From Candidatus Saccharimonadota bacterium (GTDB taxonomy: Bacteria > Patescibacteriota > Saccharimonadia > Saccharimonadales > UBA4665): 64,000 bases of DNA. The notes under the pieces are model-generated. The model was not told where the DNA came from. It worked only from the letters and a program-made list of their open reading frames with translations, and did not search any database. The translations under genes and the position numbers were made by a program. The stretch covers positions 1,179 through 65,178 of the forward strand of contig DAHXLE010000012.1 in NCBI GenBank assembly GCA_027371825.1. The letters run 5' to 3'. Below, piece by piece: positions 10,682-22,809 of this stretch (within the stretch, counting starts at the first letter, position 1; every line of letters starts with the position of its first letter).

Positions 10682-11180
10682 GAAAGAAAAAACAGTTTTG
10701 AACTTACCTATGCAGGTGATTTCACCGGCAGATGTGAGCAGACTGTCCCGTGAGCTGGAATCGCTGGAGGATTTCATGGAGCAATCCGCCATTCGGACCA
10801 AGGGAGTAGGTTTAAAATTACCGGCATCTTCTAAGCTTTTAGATGAATTAGCTGCTTCTAATTCATTTAATTTTCTTCACATTCAAGACCGTAAACTAGC
10901 CAAGGAGTTTCTAGGGACACTGACTAAAACTGCGCCGGTCATCCATCTCAGTTTTGCGTCCGATCCGTCGGCAGCATTCTTATCAAAACTTGTTTCGCGG
11001 CTTAGAGACATTATTCATCCCCAGCTGTTGGTTCGCACCGGGCTAGAACCGTCGATTGCAGCCGGCTGCATACTAAGAACTAATAATCGTCAATTTGACT
11101 TTAGTCTAAGGACTACCCTGTATGCCAAGTCAGACCTGTTAATGAAGGCCCTTAAATTGAATAGCGAGGGACAAACTTGA
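10671..11180 (+). CDS. atpH: F-type ATPase subunit delta (OSCP)
   Basis: The C-terminal part LVRTGLEPSIAAGCILRTNNRQFDFSLRTTL matches the delta/OSCP C-terminal pattern (..dpsliGG..i..g...iD.S....L). The ORF is open from 10632. A GTG at 10671, preceded by GAGGA, is the more likely start. Confidence 0.7.
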   Translation: MGPKKEKTVLNLPMQVISPADVSRLSRELESLEDFMEQSAIRTKGVGLKLPASSKLLDELAASNSFNFLHIQDRKLAKEFLGTLTKTAPVIHLSFASDPSAAFLSKLVSRLRDIIHPQLLVRTGLEPSIAAGCILRTNNRQFDFSLRTTLYAKSDLLMKALKLNSEGQT

Positions 11181-12636
11181 GCGACAACAGACACTTTGAC
11201 CAGCTAGTAAACAACAATCACCCCATTGGAGAAGTTATCGGGGTGGATAAATTTCTTATAAAACTTAGCGGACTGCAGCCGGTCAATACCCATGCTCTAA
11301 TAATGTTCGAAGATGGCAGCAAAGGTTATGTCCATCATGTTTTGCCGGATTATACTCTTGTGTTTCATATGGGGCGAGTACCTATTAGGGTCGGTATGAC
11401 GGCAGTGGTACAACACGACGCATTGGTTAGTCAGGTGGGTAAAGGATTTGTTGGCAGGATAGTAACGGTTAGCGGTGAGCCGCTTGATGGCAAGGGTCCC
11501 ATAGGCGCCGACGGTGTTTGGCCGGTGTTTGCTCAGGCGCCCATGTTATATAAACGGGAACTTCTGGATACACAGCTTGAGACCGGGGTGGCCATTGTTG
11601 ACAGTCTTTTCCCGCTAGTCAAAGGACAAAGGATAGCGATATTAGGAGACAACAAGTCCGGCAAAACGACCTTAGGTCTTCAGACGGCTATAAACCAAAG
11701 AAATACCGACATGATCGTAGTCTACGTTTTGATAGCTAAACGCCGGAGTGATATTGACGATCTCGTTACTCAGATGCAGGCCAACAATTCTCTGGATAAA
11801 GCGGTCATAGTGGTCTCGACAATGTCGGACTCTTTAGTAATGAGTTTTCTTGCTCCTTATGTCGGATGCTCTATAGCGGAATATCTTTGGCAAATTGTCG
11901 GTCAAGATGTCATGGTGATCTACGATGATCTAACCAGTCACGCTCAGATTTATCGTGAGATGTCGCTTCTATCCGGGGTGAGTCCGGGACGTGATTCCTA
12001 TCCCGGAGATATGTTCTATATCCATTCCCAGTTACTGGAACGAGCGGGTAAGTTGGCGGAAAATCATAAAACACTTACTGCTTTGCCGCTTGTTCTAACT
12101 CCCGGTGGCGACATAACCGGTTTCTTGTCTACCAACCTTATGTCTATAACGGATGGGCAGTGGATACTTGATATGAAGACATTTCGTGACACAGTACGAC
12201 CGGCGCTTAGTGTGCCATTGAGTGTTACCAGAGTTGGCGGTCGAGGTCAAAATAAAAGACAAAAAGTTCAGAGTGCCCAGATACTACAAGCTCTCAGCGC
12301 TTACGCGACGGCCGAACAATACTCACATTTTGGAACCGAAATGGGCGGTAATTTACAGCGCGCCGTAGACAGAGGACATGATCTTTATGAGCTCTTTACT
12401 CAAAAGCCCGGCGAAACTTACAGCCTTCTCGCTCAACAACTGATGCTAGAGGTTTTTCTGGGACTGTCACCGGAAGAAACAATAGATATAACGGCCCTGA
12501 AGGCTAATGCGTCCGTTTATGCTGAAAAACTGGATCCTAATGACGAGAAAGGCTTTCAGGCGGTGTCCGATAAATTGAAAAGTGCGTTTCTTGTCAAGGG
12601 TAATACCAAAAAGCTAACTCCTACCAAAGGACAAGC

Positions 12637-12640
<4 letters not shown>
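11177..12640 (+). CDS. atpA: F-type ATPase subunit alpha (divergent)
   Basis: The Walker A motif is GDNKSGKTT (canonical GDRQTGKT). SPGRDSYPGDMFYIHSQLLERA matches [21 protein letters not shown]. The TTG start overlaps the delta stop as TTGA. Confidence 0.9.
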
Positions 12641-15120
<2,480 letters not shown>

Positions 15121-15124
<4 letters not shown>

Positions 15125-16146
15125 TCCACTGCTATATAGTCAAATACCAGTTGTTCCGACGGTCCGGGCGGAGATGGTGTCTCTATACTGAATCCGCTAG
15201 TGGACCGCGTAATGTAATACGGCGTAACTGCCGCGGCTGAACTTAAGGGCGTGATGACCACATCGGCCGCTGAAGTGAACGGTGTATTAAAAGTTACGTT
15301 TATAAGGGAACCGGCGCCGGGAGAAGTTCCTGTGTTGATGGTGACGGTTCCGGCTGTGTCGGAACCGCTTATAGATACGGTACCGCCTGCGCCTATGGAG
15401 CTACCGGCCACGGCGGTCGCCGAGACTCCGCCAGCTTCTATGTGATGTGTTAGTACCAAGTCGCTGTTAAGAGTTAGGCTCTGAGCACTCAGCTGGTTAA
15501 CGGACAAAGAGCCGCCGAAGCTTCCCGACCCAGAAACGCTGAGATTCTTTCCGACGTTTAACTGTCCTTGGATATTGGTGTCTCCGGAAACGGTCAGTTG
15601 GTTGGCGGCAATCTGATTGAATCCACTTGTTCCGGTAACTGTTATGCCGGGTAGATTCAAACTTCCTCCCACCTTGATTACGCCCGCTACGTTAAGATCT
15701 TGTTTCATGAGTACTTGCCCGCCGAATACCGCCGAAGCACCGACCGTCAATATTTGCGACGAACTGCCTACATTAAGATCGGTCCTCGATAATTTATCCA
15801 ATTCGCTCTGGGTAAGGTTCTGTGTGGAGATAACAGGAGCGGAGTTTTTATGGTTTAAGATAATTGCTGCAATGACTATCGCTACAGCTATAAAGAGTGT
15901 CAGCAAAAACAGCAAAAGGTATTTATTAGGGGCAGGAACCCTGATTCGGTGATGTTTGCCGGTGGGCGGCAATGGACCGACCGGAGGTGACGGAGGTTGT
16001 TGAGGTGGTGACACGGTGAGTATGGGCGACGCCATAGGAGCAGTTACGGTTGTCGGATTTTCGATAACCGTGCTTGGTGTCTCAAGTGAGGTATCAGCCT
16101 CTTCGTTGCGCTGATTTTGATTTATCGGATCCATCCCGAGTAACAT
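15121..16146 (-). CDS. type II membrane protein: Pro-rich cytoplasmic tail, TM, extracellular beta-helix-like repeats, C-terminal lectin-like domain
   Basis: The N-terminal 85 aa are Pro-rich (PPQQPPSPPVGPLPPTG). A TM helix follows (LLLFLLTLFIAVAIVIAAIIL). Degenerate repeats follow that (LNVAGVIKVGGSLNLPGITVTGTSG.., QLTVSGDTNIQGQLNVGKNLSVSGSGSFGGSLSV). The C-terminus is VTFNTPFTSAADVVITP...TSGFSI...FDYIAV. Confidence 0.8.
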
Positions 16147-16419: not shown

Positions 16420-17190
16420 ATGAAACATTGGAGGCATACCATTGGAGTCGTTATTGTTTGCGGCATACTTTTTGCGATCTCTCCCGTAAGCGTTAAAGCC
16501 GATACTTACGCCTCTCCAAATTATCAGATAAATCAGGTATTTGTCGGCAATGGCGGGTCGCTTAGCCTATCCTCGCCAAACTATTCTGCCCAGGCTTCAG
16601 TAGGAGCGCTCGGTGTCGGACACAGCTCCAGTACTAATTTTCAAGCACAAGCAGGCTATGATACTAACCGATCACCCTATCTTGAACTGGGTGTCACCAA
16701 TAGTAGTACAAGTTTGGGCACGCTAAGTAGCTCAACGACAGCTACCGCTACGGCCAAATTCCTCGTCAAGGCATATTTGGCTAATGGCTATGTGGTTCAA
16801 ACCAATAGTCCGCCTCCTTCCAGTGGCAGCCATACACTTCAACCGTTAGCTACGGCAACGGCGTCGGTGGCCGGCCAAGAGCAATTCGGCATGAACCTAG
16901 TGGCCGATACGAATCCTAGCTCACTGAGTACGACAAGTTCGAATCCTGTCCAAAATCCTGATAATACATTTAGTTTCGGAAGCGTTAACCCTGCTACCTG
17001 TGCATCGGTGAGTAGCGGCTATAATATACCCAATGAATATAAGTATGCCGAAGGTGACGTTATAGCAGCTTCTTGTTTAAGCTCCGGTGAAACAGACTAC
17101 ACGATTTCATATATATTTAACGTTAGCAATACGACCCCCGGCGGGCATTACACATTTAATGATGTCATTGTCGCCACAGCTACTTATTAG
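16420..17190 (+). CDS. secreted fibre/pilin-like protein, short paralog (P1)
   Basis: It has a signal peptide (..ISPVSVKA/DT). Three short repeats follow: SPNYQINQVFVGNGG, SPNYSAQASVGALG and STNFQAQAGYD. It shares with P2-P4 the motifs SVAGQEQFGMNLVADTNP and the C-terminal NVSNTTPGGHYTFNDVIVATATY-stop. Confidence 0.85.
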   Translation: MKHWRHTIGVVIVCGILFAISPVSVKADTYASPNYQINQVFVGNGGSLSLSSPNYSAQASVGALGVGHSSSTNFQAQAGYDTNRSPYLELGVTNSSTSLGTLSSSTTATATAKFLVKAYLANGYVVQTNSPPPSSGSHTLQPLATATASVAGQEQFGMNLVADTNPSSLSTTSSNPVQNPDNTFSFGSVNPATCASVSSGYNIPNEYKYAEGDVIAASCLSSGETDYTISYIFNVSNTTPGGHYTFNDVIVATATY

Positions 17191-17199
17191 ATACCGACT

Positions 17200-18372
17200 A
17201 TGCCTATAATCAAAACATCAAAATCCTTAATTATTTTACTAACTGTCTCTGCTGTCACGGCATGGTTTATCGGATTAACTCCTGGGTACGTACTGGCCTA
17301 CTCATTGGCCACCCCGGATTCTATTACTATGACGAGCTCTATGCCTTCTGCGGTGAACGTGTCCTATGCGGTCAGTTTTACCGCAGCAACTACGGCAACT
17401 CTCCAGGGAATAATCGTCGACTTTTGCTCAAACAGTCCGACACTCGGCGACGTGTGTGACGCCCCGGCCGGATTTTCGGTCGGGACACCGATTGTCACCA
17501 ATGAAGCAGGAATAACATCCAGCTGGTCAGCCTCCTCTCTGGACAGCGATAGGACGGTTCTACTGACTTATCCTACCGGTACGGCTATAACCTCCGGCGA
17601 GAACATATCGTTCAACGTAACTACCGTTACTAACCCGTCCGCTGCCAATACTACATACTATGCCCGGATATTAACCTATACATCTTCGACAGTAGCATCG
17701 GCTTATAGTGTCAGCAGTACCTCGTCGAGTATAGGGGATCCAACCGACGCCGGCGGCGTGGCACTTTCTACTAGTAACAGCATAAGCGTTAATTTTGTTA
17801 TACCAGAGTCACTATCTTTTTGTGTATACACCGGGGCTAACTGCGCGGCAGGGGGCAATTCAATAACTCTGGGGGACTCGCACGGCTATCTGTCGGTTAG
17901 CGGCCCGTTTGTCGACAAGTCCGTCAAATATGATATATCGACCAATGCTTCTCATGGAGCGGTTGTTGATCTGCAGGGTAATACTCTCCGTTACGGTGCC
18001 CAGTCAATCCCGGCACTTTCTACGCCGACCGCCAGTGTTGCCGGTACCTCACAGTTTGGGGTATGCACCTATACATCTGCCGGGTCAAGTCTTGTGCCCT
18101 TTGGGGATTATGATGGCAATGCAGGTAGCGGTGGGACGGCCTGCCAAAACGTCGCACAAAGCTCAGGCGGGAGCGGTCCGGGGAGCGGGGGCGGAGTTTT
18201 ATGGTACTTCAATCTAGCACAGATTTCTTCCGCATATGGTGATGAAATTGCCTCGATACCTTCAAGTACCACCAACACGGGTGTTTTGGCCATGATGGCG
18301 AATATTTCCACTACTTTGCCGAGCGGAATTTATACTACCAGTCTTGATCTGTTAGCAACGGGCACCTATTGA
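17200..18372 (+). CDS. secreted fibre/pilin-like protein, two-domain paralog (P2)
   Basis: It has a signal peptide. Its motifs include VDFCSNSPTLGDVCDAPAGFSVGTP, GGVALSTS, SLSFCVYTGANCAAGGNSITLGD and GTSQFGVCTY. The C-terminus is SGIYTTSLDLLATGTY-stop. It has three Cys pairs. Confidence 0.88.
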   Translation: MPIIKTSKSLIILLTVSAVTAWFIGLTPGYVLAYSLATPDSITMTSSMPSAVNVSYAVSFTAATTATLQGIIVDFCSNSPTLGDVCDAPAGFSVGTPIVTNEAGITSSWSASSLDSDRTVLLTYPTGTAITSGENISFNVTTVTNPSAANTTYYARILTYTSSTVASAYSVSSTSSSIGDPTDAGGVALSTSNSISVNFVIPESLSFCVYTGANCAAGGNSITLGDSHGYLSVSGPFVDKSVKYDISTNASHGAVVDLQGNTLRYGAQSIPALSTPTASVAGTSQFGVCTYTSAGSSLVPFGDYDGNAGSGGTACQNVAQSSGGSGPGSGGGVLWYFNLAQISSAYGDEIASIPSSTTNTGVLAMMANISTTLPSGIYTTSLDLLATGTY

Positions 18373-18495
18373 GTTTAGGAGGGTGTGGATAAGTGTATTG
18401 CGAGATATTAATTTTCGTATTAAACTAATGCACAGTTAGGTTTGTTTCACACATAGGTGTCATAATAGATAAAGAACTCCGAAAAAAATAAAACC

Positions 18496-19698
18496 ATGAA
18501 AATTGTTCAGCATTTTAGAAAGATAACGTACATGATAGCCTCGCTGGTGATGCTATCGGGTACGATCAGTTTCATAGGTGCTGAAGCGGTACACGCCTTT
18601 CCTCTATACGGTGAGGTGCAGTCTCGTTCGATCGAAATGAGTACATCCGTGCCGGGGGCTGCGGCCACCTATCACGTTACCTTTACCGTTGCAACTACAG
18701 CCTCGGTCGGTGGAATCGTAGTAGATTTTTGTTCCAACGATCCAATTCTCGGCGATACCTGTACTGCCCCGACGGGTTTAAGCATCGGCACACCAACGGT
18801 TAGCGGTGCCAGTACCAATCTAACAGGTACTTGGACTGCCGCAAAAATTGCCTCTAGTGCGAGTACGCTTGGATATACAACGGCTACACCGGTGGCATTA
18901 ACCGGGGGCACATCGATTGTCTATTTTGACATAACCTCAATGACTAACCCGACGACAACCGGTAGTTTGTACGCCAGGCTGTATACCTTTGATACCGCAA
19001 CCGATGCCGGCAGTTACACTGCAACCGGAGCCGATACGGGGTTGATAGACGGTGGTGGTGTTGCTCTCTCGACAAATCCAACCTTGAATGTTACGGCCAA
19101 AGTGCAGGAAGAGTTAACCTTCTGTATCGATACGAATAGTGCCGCTAACTGTTCGACCGCATCCGGCAATTCCGTGGCTTTAGGTGATAGTCATGGTGTT
19201 TTATCGAGCCAGGGGGCGTACGTAGACAAAACCACGCAATATATCGTACAAACCAATGCCAGTGTCGGTGCGGCGATCAGAATTGAGGGTAATACGCTAT
19301 CGTTTGGATCCAATCAGATTGCTGCTGCATGTTCAGGATCGTGTCCGGGGGCCACTCCGGCTACGTCGGCTGTTGGCACTTCTCAGTTTGGTCTATGCAC
19401 ATATGACTCAGCAGGTGCTGCTACCATAACGGCTGCCGCAACATACAATGGCGGGGCCGCCGGTAAATGTGCCGGTACTACTCAGACTGCCGGTACTACT
19501 ACCCCTGGCGGAGATAACGGCGCATCGTTTGGTCTGAATACGACGCTGACTAGCGGGACATATGGCGACACACTTGCTAATGTGGTAGCCGGTGCTCAGG
19601 CTACCGGCACTTTGGTGTTTCTCGGCAATATATCCGTAACCCAGCCAGCCGGAATCTATACTACTGCTCTCACGCTTGTGGCAACCGGTACATATTAA
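18496..19698 (+). CDS. secreted fibre/pilin-like protein, two-domain paralog (P3)
   Basis: It is collinear with P2. Its motifs include VDFCSNDPILGDTCTAPTGLSIGTP, GGVALSTNP, LTFCIDTNSAANC..VALGD and GTSQFGLCTY. The C-terminus is AGIYTTALTLVATGTY-stop. It is preceded by a 123-nt gap containing a CATAAT hexamer. Confidence 0.88.
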   Translation: MKIVQHFRKITYMIASLVMLSGTISFIGAEAVHAFPLYGEVQSRSIEMSTSVPGAAATYHVTFTVATTASVGGIVVDFCSNDPILGDTCTAPTGLSIGTPTVSGASTNLTGTWTAAKIASSASTLGYTTATPVALTGGTSIVYFDITSMTNPTTTGSLYARLYTFDTATDAGSYTATGADTGLIDGGGVALSTNPTLNVTAKVQEELTFCIDTNSAANCSTASGNSVALGDSHGVLSSQGAYVDKTTQYIVQTNASVGAAIRIEGNTLSFGSNQIAAACSGSCPGATPATSAVGTSQFGLCTYDSAGAATITAAATYNGGAAGKCAGTTQTAGTTTPGGDNGASFGLNTTLTSGTYGDTLANVVAGAQATGTLVFLGNISVTQPAGIYTTALTLVATGTY

Positions 19699-19710
19699 GG
19701 GACATCCTTT

Positions 19711-20787
19711 GTGCGACACGCACTACGTCGATTTTCGATAAAGTTTTTAACGGCAATTAGTCTTTTGCTGATTTCGACCGTTTCGACACTGCTGATTAAT
19801 ACTCCCGGTGTATATGCCACTACATTGTATGTATCGAATCGTACCGATGAACTATCGACCTCGACAGTGAGTGCTACGGCAACCCATATAATCTCATTTG
19901 CAATGACCGACACCACGGATCCTTTAGGTTCGATCAGACTTGAATTTTGTTCCAATGATCCGATTCCTGAAGACAGCTGTGTTGCGCCGGCAGGGTTAAA
20001 TCTATTGGGTGCATCGCTCGGGAGCCAAAGCGGCAATACGGGCTTTGTAATAGCCACCGCGACCGCGAATGAAATATTGCTGAGCAGGTCATCAGATCAG
20101 GTACCAAACAGCAGTCTTAATAGTTATCAGATAATTAATGCCATTAATCCATCATATTTAGGTACATTTTATCTTCGCCTGTATACCTATTCGTCGATCG
20201 ATGGCAGCGGTACTCAAACAGAAGAAGGGGGCATAGCCCTTAGCACAAATACCGGTGTCAATGTTACGGCCCAAGTACCCCCCTATTTGGGTTTTTGTGC
20301 CGGCGCAACAATCACCGGACATGATTGTTCTTCCGTCTCGGGGTATTACCTGAACTTCGGTGATTTCAGTAGCCTGAAGCCGTCTGTAGCTACTTCACAG
20401 TTTAGCGTAGGCACTAATGCCGGTAACGGCTATAATGTTACAATCAACGGAAGCACCCTAACTTCCGGTAATAATGTTATTCCGGCCCTTGCCAACCCAA
20501 GTCCGTCAATTGCCGGAACAAGCGAGTTTGGTATAAATTTGGTTGCCAATACTTCGCCTTTGTCGGGAAGTAATCCTGTCGGACCTTCAGATGTCGATGG
20601 TCGGGTAATGCCGCCCTACAATGTACCCAACGAGTTTTTGTTTAATACCGGGGGTGTAGTCGTCAGTTCAATAACCAGTAGCAACTATCAAATATTTACC
20701 ACCACCTACCTCGCCAATGTTAGTAATAGCCAGGCTGCAGGAGTTTATACCTCGACCATAACTTATGTTTGCCTAGCTAATTTTTAA
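19711..20787 (+). CDS. secreted fibre/pilin-like protein, two-domain paralog (P4)
   Basis: It starts at a GTG after AAGGGA. Its motifs include LEFCSNDPIPEDSCVAPAGLNLLG, GGIALSTNTGVNVTAQV, LGFCAGATITGHDC..YYLNFGD and GTSEFGINLVANTSP. It shares YNVPNEF with P1. The C-terminus is AGVYTSTITYVCLANF-stop. Confidence 0.88.
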   Translation: MRHALRRFSIKFLTAISLLLISTVSTLLINTPGVYATTLYVSNRTDELSTSTVSATATHIISFAMTDTTDPLGSIRLEFCSNDPIPEDSCVAPAGLNLLGASLGSQSGNTGFVIATATANEILLSRSSDQVPNSSLNSYQIINAINPSYLGTFYLRLYTYSSIDGSGTQTEEGGIALSTNTGVNVTAQVPPYLGFCAGATITGHDCSSVSGYYLNFGDFSSLKPSVATSQFSVGTNAGNGYNVTINGSTLTSGNNVIPALANPSPSIAGTSEFGINLVANTSPLSGSNPVGPSDVDGRVMPPYNVPNEFLFNTGGVVVSSITSSNYQIFTTTYLANVSNSQAAGVYTSTITYVCLANF

Positions 20788-20811: not shown

Positions 20812-21801
20812 ATGTTAAGAGCTCACTTTCCAAGCTCAATGTCCCTGAGGGTGTTGCTGCTGCCGGTTATATTAATACCTATCGTTTTGTTGCCATCGGT
20901 TAAAGCGGCGGCTGCCGGCGTGGCTAACGGATTTCTTATCTCGCCAGTTACGGAGTATCTAACCGTTAACAAGGGCACTACTCAGACAGTTGATATTGCC
21001 GTTCAGAATCCAACGAATTCATCTGTGGTTGCTCAAGCTGTGGTTAATGACTTTATTGCAAGCGGTAATGAAACCGGAGTGCCGAGGGTGTTACTAAACG
21101 GCAGCGCAGTACCGGCTAATAACTTCAGAACTTTGGTTTCCCGTATACCCAATACCATATTAACCCCTGGCGAAAAACAGTACATTCCGGTTACCATTAC
21201 CGTTCCTAAAAATGCTGAATCCGGAGGTTACTACGGTGTTGTGAGGTTTACTCCCGCCACTAACGGTCCGTCATCAGGAGCAAATGTCGGGTTAACCGCG
21301 AGTGTCGGCACACTGTTTTTGGTAACTGTTCCCGGAAACTTATCGAAAAAGATTGAGTTGGTGCAGTTGTCTGCTGCAAACTCCAAAGGTAGCCCATCGA
21401 GTTTTCTAAGTTATGGTAACGTATCGGTGATGGTTCGCTTAAAAAACATCGGTAATGTTTATGCGCAACCGTTTGGAACGGTACTTGTTAAAAATATGTT
21501 TGGCTCGACGGTTGCAAGCTATCAGTTTAATAACACTACCCCAAGAGCTAGTGTTCTACAAAATAGCATCAGGAAGTTTATTAATCCGTTGCCCCAAAAA
21601 AGCTGGTTTGGCTACTATACTATTAATGCCAATATCGCATACAACACCGGCGGAGGTAACATCATAATTGCCAATGCGTCGTTTTGGTACATTCCGTGGT
21701 GGTCTTGGTTAATTCTGGCGGCCGTAATAGCTCTGCTGGGTATCTTGGGCTATTTCATTAGAAACAGAAAATATCGCCATCACAGAAAACATAAAGGTTA
21801 A
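20812..21801 (+). CDS. membrane-anchored two-beta-domain protein (CscA/DUF916+DUF3324-like architecture); putative fibre assembly/anchor factor
   Basis: It has a signal peptide and two all-beta segments (FLISPVTEYLTVNKGTTQTVDIAVQNPTN...; ...VMVRLKNIGNVYAQPFGTVLV...). A C-terminal TM helix (WWSWLILAAVIALLGILGYFI) and a basic tail (RNRKYRHHRKHKG) follow. Confidence 0.85.
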   Translation: MLRAHFPSSMSLRVLLLPVILIPIVLLPSVKAAAAGVANGFLISPVTEYLTVNKGTTQTVDIAVQNPTNSSVVAQAVVNDFIASGNETGVPRVLLNGSAVPANNFRTLVSRIPNTILTPGEKQYIPVTITVPKNAESGGYYGVVRFTPATNGPSSGANVGLTASVGTLFLVTVPGNLSKKIELVQLSAANSKGSPSSFLSYGNVSVMVRLKNIGNVYAQPFGTVLVKNMFGSTVASYQFNNTTPRASVLQNSIRKFINPLPQKSWFGYYTINANIAYNTGGGNIIIANASFWYIPWWSWLILAAVIALLGILGYFIRNRKYRHHRKHKG

Positions 21802-21891: not shown

Positions 21892-22809
21892 ATGAACAGT
21901 CGCAGCAGTGCCGTAGAACTAAAACGCCGTCTTAGGCTATTCTTCGCTGCGCTATTTGCTGCTTGTATTGTCAGCTTGGGCGGGTATTATTCGAGCGCTT
22001 CGGCTCTCAGTATGACCCAGAATGGCTCGATTGGGTTGCAGGGTACGGTCAGCTCACCGCCACCAACCACGCCGGCTAATATTACTACACCAGGCAACGG
22101 ACAAGTTCTAACAAACGGTCTAGTGACGGTTGGGGGTCAGTGCACTAATGGTTTGTTAGTGGAAGTTTTTTCAAATAATGTCTTTGCCGGGTCGACAAAA
22201 TGTAGCGGAGGAACATTCAGCATACAGGCCAGCTTGTTTAACGGCACCAACCAACTGGATGCTAAAGTGTATGATGCTCTAGGCCAATCTGGTCCTAATT
22301 CAAATACCCCGATAGTGCAATATAGTAGTGCTAAATTTTCTTCTCTAGGGCCTTTATTGACCTTGTCAAGCATCTATGCGACGCAAGGAATCAATCCAGG
22401 CAATCTTCTAAGTTGGCCGATTACTATATCCGGTGGCTCTGAGCCTTACAGTTTGAGTATAAACTGGGGTGACGGTACGCCGCCACAGTCCCAATCGGCT
22501 CCGTTTTTCGGAAATGTTATGCTCTCTCATACGTATCAAAATGCCGGTACGTATAATATCAGCGTTAAAGCCACCGACGTAAATGGTGAAGTTGCATTCC
22601 TGCAAATGGTCGGGGTGGCCAACGGAGCTGTACCGCAATCTGCGTCGACGACAAATAACAGTCAACCAACAAGCAATACCGCTTATCTGGAATGGTGGCC
22701 CGCTATGGTAATACTGCCTTTGTTGCTGGTGGCATTCTGGCTTGGCGGTGCCCATAGGATTACCTCTTTAAAAAAGAAATTGGATAACGGTAACGACAAT
22801 CTCAAATAG
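21892..22809 (+). CDS. surface protein with Ig-like and PKD domains and a C-terminal TM anchor
   Basis: It has an N-terminal signal or anchor. The Ig-like segment runs ITTPGNGQVLTNGLVTVGGQC...GTNQLDAKVYDALGQSG. The PKD signature is INWGDGTPPQ...HTYQNAGTYNISVKATDVNGE. The C-terminal TM helix is WWPAMVILPLLLVAFWLGG. Confidence 0.85.
   Translation: MNSRSSAVELKRRLRLFFAALFAACIVSLGGYYSSASALSMTQNGSIGLQGTVSSPPPTTPANITTPGNGQVLTNGLVTVGGQCTNGLLVEVFSNNVFAGSTKCSGGTFSIQASLFNGTNQLDAKVYDALGQSGPNSNTPIVQYSSAKFSSLGPLLTLSSIYATQGINPGNLLSWPITISGGSEPYSLSINWGDGTPPQSQSAPFFGNVMLSHTYQNAGTYNISVKATDVNGEVAFLQMVGVANGAVPQSASTTNNSQPTSNTAYLEWWPAMVILPLLLVAFWLGGAHRITSLKKKLDNGNDNLK

Follow-up and report, generated by a model that had tools for sequence, protein, structure and literature searches.

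A Membrane-Anchored Relative of WxLIP Proteins as Probable Chaperone of Pam Pilus Assembly in a Saccharimonadia Bacterium

The Pam Locus and Its Probable Chaperone Gene

The stretch of DNA considered here (64,000 nucleotides of contig DAHXLE010000012.1, referred to below as the window) belongs to a Candidatus Saccharimonadota bacterium, a member of the class Saccharimonadia within the candidate phyla radiation (CPR), whose genome (614 kb) is 71% complete. The window contains a Pam pilus operon of six tightly spaced co-directional genes encoding PamT, three Pam pilins, the protein P0001 and PamR. P0001, the product of the fifth gene (an ATG-to-stop open reading frame (ORF) of 329 codons, 20812-21801, + strand), is most likely the single assembly chaperone of this operon. 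It has the architecture and fold of a membrane-anchored chaperone and a sequence kinship with WxLIP/ElrE proteins, and its family shares synteny and co-occurrence with the Pam pilins.

Proteins of this kind were already described in 2026. In the work of Troman et al. (bioRxiv 2026, PMC13278184) on Ca. Mycosynbacter amalyticus, the structures of the PamA and PamB filaments were determined, and it was proposed, from AlphaFold and Foldseek, that PamC and PamD are FimC/PapD-like chaperones. Unlike classical chaperones, PamC and PamD keep a C-terminal transmembrane (TM) helix, and they would drive donor-strand exchange without a trans-envelope machine; PamT would form the tip of the fibre, and PamR would act as terminator and anchor (PMC13278184). 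The second system relevant here is the elr (WxL) operon of E. faecalis, in which ElrE, a DUF916/DUF3324 protein with an additional TM helix, nucleates the polymerisation of the WxL pilin ElrD; ElrE was identified as a donor-strand chaperone by pull-downs, mutants and cryo-electron microscopy (Sleutel et al., bioRxiv 10.64898/2026.10.17.759780, October 2026). The homology of the CPR Pam chaperones to the chaperones of Gram-positive WxL pili is unpublished.

The pilin encoded directly upstream of the chaperone gene (19711-20787) is PamE-like, and all three Pam pilins (17200..20787) are the presumed clients of P0001. PamR, which ends in a TM helix and a charged tail, is the presumed terminator or anchor of the fibre; the pilins of the locus end in ...TGTY or ...LANF. 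PamR is followed in the window by mnmA and then by murJ. The locus contains no usher, sortase or LPXTG element, as the original prediction had stated: the usher family PF00577 has no match in the 71%-complete genome, the sole sortase gene of this genome is located on another contig, and an LPXTG tail is present on none of the locus proteins. The chaperone itself has no named model in NCBIfam. NF058580, whose accession lies between those of the Pam models, was considered as a chaperone model and ruled out, being an unrelated lipase. The promoter and terminator scan of the operon returned sites no more numerous than in shuffles.

Table 1. Features of the Pam operon and of the chaperone P0001 (window positions)
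Feature	Position	Strand	Basis
PamT (tip pilin) gene, first in operon	16420..17190	+	NF058579, 275 bits (cut-off 240)
Three Pam pilin genes	17200-18372, 18496-19698, 19711-20787	+	NF058581 Pam_pilin_C, 71, 54 and 151 bits
Membrane-anchored Pam pilus chaperone gene (probable)	20812..21801	+	ORF and translation, homologues, synteny, model, tree, identities
Signal peptide region, residues 1-33	20812..20910	+	Hydropathy; low-confidence model helix 11-21; sequence
Domain 1, residues ~38-148, beta-sandwich, divergent DUF916/WxLIP_PGBD	20923..21255	+	PF06030 match; EfmWxLIP1 alignment
Residues 149-165 (..NVGLTASVG), conserved, low model confidence; candidate for a donor (G1-like) strand or a hairpin	21256..21306	+	Inferred
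Domain 2, residues ~166-294, Ig-like beta-sandwich	21307..21693	+	Model; alignment to second domain of WxLIP/CfaA
C-terminal TM helix (~297-316) and basic cytoplasmic tail (317-329)	21700..21798	+	Hydropathy, tail composition, model
PamR (RbmA-like, TM-anchored) gene, last in operon	21892..22809	+	NF058578, 349 bits (cut-off 300)

Architecture and Fold of P0001

The N-terminus of P0001 contains a hydrophobic segment (residues 12-30) followed by VKA/AAAG, from which hydropathy predicts a signal peptide. The second ATG of the gene (M10, 20839) would give a shorter, more typical signal peptide and might be the true start; neither candidate start (20812 or 20839) has an obvious Shine-Dalgarno sequence. 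The AlphaFold2 model, built with 45 homologues, has a mean pLDDT (predicted local distance difference test) of 86.5 and a pTM (predicted template modelling score) of 0.77. Its two beta-sandwich domains span residues of about 42-148 and 166-293, and a C-terminal helix follows at 296-328. Domain 1 ends in an invariant GGYYG..RF strand, with invariant columns G138, Y140, Y141 and G142, and domain 2 opens with the conserved hinge strand LFLVTVPG. The hydrophobic segment at 298-316 is a TM helix according to hydropathy, and the 14-residue tail that follows it contains 10 K, R or H residues. The predicted topology is accordingly type I, most of the protein lying outside and the tail inside. The number of cysteines in P0001 is zero. 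All peptides quoted in the original prediction are present in the translation; the signal peptide and the two beta-sandwich-like halves that it had described agree with hydropathy and the AlphaFold2 model, and the C-terminal TM helix and strongly basic tail agree with hydropathy and the composition of the tail.

Conservation within the family is highest in two peptides, one forming the last strand of domain 1 (A.[SA]GGYYG[AV][IV]) and the other the hinge ([LI][FV]L[VI][TR]VPG[ND]L). Segment 149-165, located between them, is nearly invariant and has an alternating hydrophobic pattern. Residues 151-160 are modelled with a pLDDT of 52 despite the invariant A163 and the near-invariant V159, L161, S164 and V165. 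Such a combination of conservation and low model confidence would be expected of a strand that becomes ordered only upon partner binding. Its position corresponds to that of the donor strand of ElrE (141-152, at the end of DUF916); by analogy, either residues 149-165 or residues 138-148 are the candidate donor strand of P0001.

In the Foldseek search with the P0001 model the WxLIP structures 9i1y/9i25 ranked first (E 1.6e-11), followed by CfaA, CsuC, EcpB and RbmA. Over both domains, VIA aligned P0001 with 9i25_C (Z 15.2, 233 residues), 9i1y_A (Z 14.9) and the chaperone-usher chaperone CfaA (Z 11.2). The two-domain matches of VIA are restricted to WxLIP (about 235 residues) and CfaA, the remaining high scores being due to domain 2 alone and including many single Ig domains. 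The similarity to both Ig-like chaperones and CscA-type WxLIP proteins, on which the original prediction depended, is therefore found by Foldseek and VIA alike. The topology suggested there, that of a PapD/CsuC-type chaperone tethered to a single membrane, agrees with the fold matches to CfaA, CsuC and EcpB; PamC/PamD have been described in the same terms, and experiments on ElrE showed this mode of action.

Sequence Kinship with DUF916/WxLIP Proteins

The first homologue search with P0001 returned 273 homologues, most of which have a precomputed PF06030 match; some are named by NCBI as DUF916 or "WxL protein peptidoglycan domain-containing" proteins. In metagenome clusters (50% identity) the family comprises 19,672 cluster representatives at E<=1e-3. 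The relatives of the host genome are without exception metagenome-assembled Saccharibacteria/Patescibacteria genomes. PF06030 (WxLIP_PGBD, formerly DUF916) matches residues 50-147 of P0001 itself with an E-value of 1.6e-4 and 22.1-22.9 bits, the gathering cut-off of this family being 27.3 bits. The same family matches 43 of the 45 aligned homologues at E<=0.01 (best 2.7e-9).

The second WxLIP domain, PF11797 (DUF3324, WxLIP_HBD), was detected neither in the genome at E<=1 nor in the 45 homologues at E<=0.01; agreement with this domain is confined to the structure. PF00345 (PapD_N) gave no match at E<=1 and none in the Pfam scan. Thus, of the likeness to CscA/DUF916+DUF3324 proteins put forward in the original prediction, the DUF916 part is supported by PF06030, the WxLIP structures and a reverse profile search, and the DUF3324 part is undetectable by sequence; among the profile families proposed for comparison, DUF916 is matched by P0001 below its gathering cut-off, DUF3324 and PapD are not matched.

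The reverse search was made with a broad CPR chaperone profile (A3) against PDB sequences. EfmWxLIP1 (9i25_C and 9i1y_A) provided the two best matches (1.5e-4), the alignment covering domain 1 (residues 25-133 of EfmWxLIP1), and no chaperone-usher chaperone was among the matches of this profile. Searches of PDB sequences with the single sequence and with a narrow profile (A1) gave chance matches only. Among the 100 nearest named language-model clusters of P0001, 33 are Bacillota clusters with PF06030+PF11797 and 0 are PapD-like. P0001 is a remote but real relative of WxLIP/ElrE, and it has the general chaperone fold of the chaperone-usher chaperones without belonging to their sequence family.

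Gene Order and Co-Occurrence with Pilins

The locus was compared across one genome per species, which yielded 79 loci, every one of them in a CPR genome. Hidden Markov models built from the window proteins served to map the chaperones, PamR and the C-terminal domains of the pilins in these loci. The gene order is near-universal: PamT (~250 aa), one to five pilins of ~400 aa, a pilin of ~355 aa, the chaperone (~330 aa) and PamR (~300 aa). In 74 of the 85 cases that could be tested, a pilin gene ends less than 400 nt before the chaperone gene, and in 61 of 88 PamR starts less than 400 nt after it. In the apparent exceptions a pilin is still nearby, and some of them contain a small inserted gene. 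One Saccharibacteria genome carries a minimal cassette (L023:9926-12339), which consists of the chaperone and, after it, one Pam pilin of 414 aa; neither PamT nor PamR lies within 10 kb.

Co-occurrence was assessed in 301 genomes drawn evenly from the class. The chaperone profile matches 170 of them and Pam_pilin_C 143. Strong chaperone matches (E<1e-30) are present in about 131 genomes, and all of these but one, which is 71% complete, carry Pam pilins (the tables were cross-read by eye). Since nearly all strong-chaperone genomes have pilins, the chaperone family does not occur independently of the Pam pilins (the P1-P4 genes of the original prediction); the two are tightly associated.

In about 39 genomes, among them those of all 18 species sampled from one genus, the chaperone matches are only weak, and most of these genomes have no recognisable Pam pilins. 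In three of the four weak-match genomes examined, chaperone-like genes form tandem arrays (L098:8220-13128, L099:6820-12353 and L100:346-8401, in the Saccharimonadia genomes G200, G033 and G118), each array holding two or three such genes, which match the window family at E 1e-13 to 1e-33. Adjoining secreted proteins of 225-355 aa are mostly missed by the Pam pilin models and end in a similar aromatic-terminated strand; motifs at their ends include ..DYSDILTIVAAGNF and ..TLTYTATTAN. They look like additional types of pilin for the same chaperone superfamily. Some proteins, namely the cluster representatives P0121, P0138, P0141 and P0148 (637-802 aa), contain two chaperone-profile stretches and are apparently fused tandem chaperones. 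One genome of the same class (G021, 100% complete) has three Pam_pilin_C matches and no chaperone-profile match at E<=0.01, so that either its chaperone is very divergent or its pilins do without one.

Upstream of the window operon lie four co-directional ORFs (11177-15124; 487, 286, 435 and 108 aa), separated from PamT by a minus-strand gene (15121-16146). In size, the four ORFs fit F1 ATPase genes, which are reported as conserved neighbours of pam operons (PMC13278184).

Chaperone Types PamC and PamD

Eight loci have the layout of M. amalyticus (T, A, E, chaperone, R, B, second chaperone), in agreement with the accession order in PMC13278184. The maximum-likelihood tree of 93 chaperones contains a long-stemmed clade with 100/100 support, which comprises the chaperones encoded before PamR in these eight loci (PamD type) and extra "early" chaperones of five other loci. 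Every single-copy chaperone, including P0001, and the chaperones encoded after PamR (PamC position) fall outside this clade. In the loci with the M. amalyticus layout, the identity of P0001 to PamC-position chaperones is 32-37%, versus 25-28% to the PamD type. PamD-type chaperones (L063:6563-7621, L084:3563-4645, L068 and L079) have an insertion of ~20 residues with conserved cysteines in domain 2, and an additional short insertion after the hinge. The ~20-residue Cys-containing insertion is lacking in P0001.

Because of the tree, the identities and the missing insertion, P0001 is assigned to the PamC-like chaperones by sequence, yet its gene occupies the PamD slot between the PamE-like pilin and PamR. 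A second chaperone, of the PamD type, was not found in the 71%-complete genome. On the simplest reading, all four pilins share a single general chaperone, and PamD is a derived, specialised form.

The Client Pilins and the WxL Domain

The C-termini of the Pam pilins follow the pattern G.Y.[ST]T......[FY]. The original prediction drew a parallel with proteins that accompany WxL partners; this did not hold at the level of Pfam, as the WxL domain PF13731 is detectable in none of the four window pilins, 46 PamE-like pilins and 42 diverse C-terminal domains. A profile of the pilin C-terminal domain had no match among PDB sequences. The model of the PamE-like pilin (19711-20787, pLDDT 89.5) gave, in Foldseek and VIA, only generic two-Ig adhesins and matches of the N-terminal domain.

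The sole positive sign comes from the language-model neighbours. WxL clusters, mostly from Actinomycetota, make up 82 of the 100 nearest named clusters for residues 200-358 of the PamE-like pilin, with scores of 0.88-0.89, which are too low to count as more than a lead. They are followed by SCPU and DUF4402 clusters, which resemble archaic chaperone-usher pilins. The same pilin contains a near-invariant VPP.L.FC motif (residues 189-196) after the low-confidence interdomain linker; this motif may be the donor (linker) strand of the pilin itself.

Comparison with Known Chaperone Systems

P0001 resembles PamC/PamD of M. amalyticus, a member of the same bacterial class, in its genetic context (PamT, pilins, PamR), signal peptide, two PapD-like Ig domains, TM helix and lack of an usher. 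The window operon differs from that of M. amalyticus in having a single chaperone; the PamB-PamC module after PamR is missing, and mnmA is found in its place.

With ElrE/EfmWxLIP1, P0001 shares two Ig domains followed by a C-terminal TM helix, a detectably homologous domain 1, the best two-domain structural match and a gene position beside fibre subunits (those of ElrE polymerise by donor-strand exchange). The differences are an identity of only about 13% and the absence of a PF11797 signal. Unlike WxL pilins, the client pilins of P0001 have no detectable WxL domain and possess an extra N-terminal domain. Anchoring of the Pam fibre is attributed to the TM protein PamR and not to a sortase/LPXTG protein. 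Finally, the host of P0001 is a CPR bacterium, and the Elr study reports its system to be confined to Bacillota.

The archaic or alternative chaperone-usher chaperones (CfaA, CsuC, EcpB) and PapD/FimC have in common with P0001 the two-domain boomerang Ig fold and, presumably, donor-strand complementation of pilins with an aromatic last residue. P0001 differs from them in that it has no PF00345 match, is membrane-anchored instead of soluble in the periplasm, and has no usher partner.

Proposed Mechanism of Pilus Assembly and Alternative Explanations

In the proposed mechanism, the two Ig-like domains of P0001 would together make up a PapD-like cleft at the outer side of the membrane. PamT, the two ~400-aa pilins and the PamE-like pilin would most likely be captured there as soon as they are exported. 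A strand from the end of domain 1 would be inserted into the groove of the incomplete C-terminal Ig domain of the pilin (donor-strand complementation). The pilin would thereby be held in a polymerisation-ready state until the linker strand of the next pilin ousts the chaperone (donor-strand exchange), and PamR would end the fibre and anchor it. An usher would not be needed because there is no outer membrane. For strand donation by P0001 the models are ElrE and the AlphaFold complexes of PamC/PamD, from which this step is inferred.

Several points weigh against assigning this role to P0001. Strand donation by P0001 would be an analogy with these systems, and the Pam chaperone role proposed in PMC13278184 is itself based on AlphaFold predictions without genetics or biochemistry. 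The PF06030 score of P0001 (22.1 bits) is under the Pfam gathering threshold, and neither PF11797 nor PF00345 matches the protein. The putative PamC/PamD assignment was made by gene order, by the described insertion and by the order of the accessions in M. amalyticus, where PamC is WP_260763277 and PamD is WP_260763284. At a genome completeness of 71%, a second chaperone could be present in the organism and unassembled.

Alternatively, P0001 could be a static anchor or adaptor in the manner of the "WxLIP platform" of 2023: with domain 1 it would hold finished subunits and the cell wall, and it would tether the fibre, or bind the host with domain 2, without catalysing polymerisation. In that model (Hassan et al.) DUF916 binds the wall or WxL proteins and DUF3324 binds the host; the permanent membrane anchorage of P0001 and the DUF916 family membership of its domain 1 would suit such a role. 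However, the platform model was revised by the ElrE experiments, according to which ElrE is needed for polymerisation and pulls down monomeric pilin via donor-strand complementation (bioRxiv 10.64898/2026.10.17.759780). Moreover, the operon already has a candidate TM-anchored anchor, PamR, and the "host-binding" signature PF11797 is absent from P0001, which leaves a purely static role unlikely.

Two further explanations are both considerably less probable than a static anchor. P0001 might be an unrelated Ig-fold surface protein (an adhesin, or associated with the wall) whose gene is no more than a companion of the pilus genes, as Ig-like domains are common and domain 2 alone matches many Ig domains of glycosidases and transglutaminases (Z about 11-12). 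This is hardly compatible with the fixed position of the gene right after a pilin gene in most of the 79 loci, the near-perfect genome-wide co-occurrence with pilins, the confinement of two-domain matches to chaperone-type proteins, or the strictly conserved strand motifs at the domain 1/hinge region, where chaperones donate strands. Slightly less probable still is the derivation of P0001 from a classical chaperone-usher chaperone (PapD/FimC/CsuC) of Gram-negative bacteria by fusion to a TM helix. The two-domain fold match to CfaA (Z 11.2), CsuC and EcpB and the naming of PamC/PamD after FimC/PapD on structural grounds (PMC13278184) could be cited for it, but PapD_N is unmatched even at E<=1, the CPR profiles match WxLIP and no chaperone-usher chaperone in PDB sequences, WxLIP scores higher over both domains, and no usher was found in the 71%-complete genome. 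The role of P0001 as the membrane-tethered assembly chaperone of the Pam operon is thus retained as by far the most probable explanation.

Pam and WxL Pili as Possible Branches of One System

The link between Pam and WxLIP proteins is made neither in PMC13278184 nor in bioRxiv 10.64898/2026.10.17.759780, and neither study mentions the system of the other. Among the papers searched, none relevantly joins WxL or DUF916 with Patescibacteria or Saccharibacteria. With about even chances, CPR Pam pili and the WxL/Elr pili of Bacillota, together with Actinomycetota relatives of the latter, could be two branches of one ancient pilus system in bacteria with a single membrane, a system that uses a membrane-anchored DUF916-type donor-strand chaperone, the C-terminal domain of the Pam pilins being perhaps a very divergent WxL-type domain. 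The chaperone half of this proposal is supported by Pfam, the reverse profile match, the structure and the language-model neighbours; for the pilin half, the language-model neighbours give a weak lead.

Pam pili are thought to serve the ultra-small parasitic CPR bacteria in first reaching a host, and the Pam operon encodes no candidate assembly factor other than the chaperone. The window locus indicates that one PamC-type chaperone can serve a whole four-pilin operon, the PamD type being an optional, derived paralogue. Through the kinship with ElrE/WxLIP, the experimental evidence for a donor-strand chaperone can be carried over to the CPR system. This kinship also suggests that usher-free pili assembled by membrane-tethered chaperones are much older and more widespread than either of the two founding papers states.

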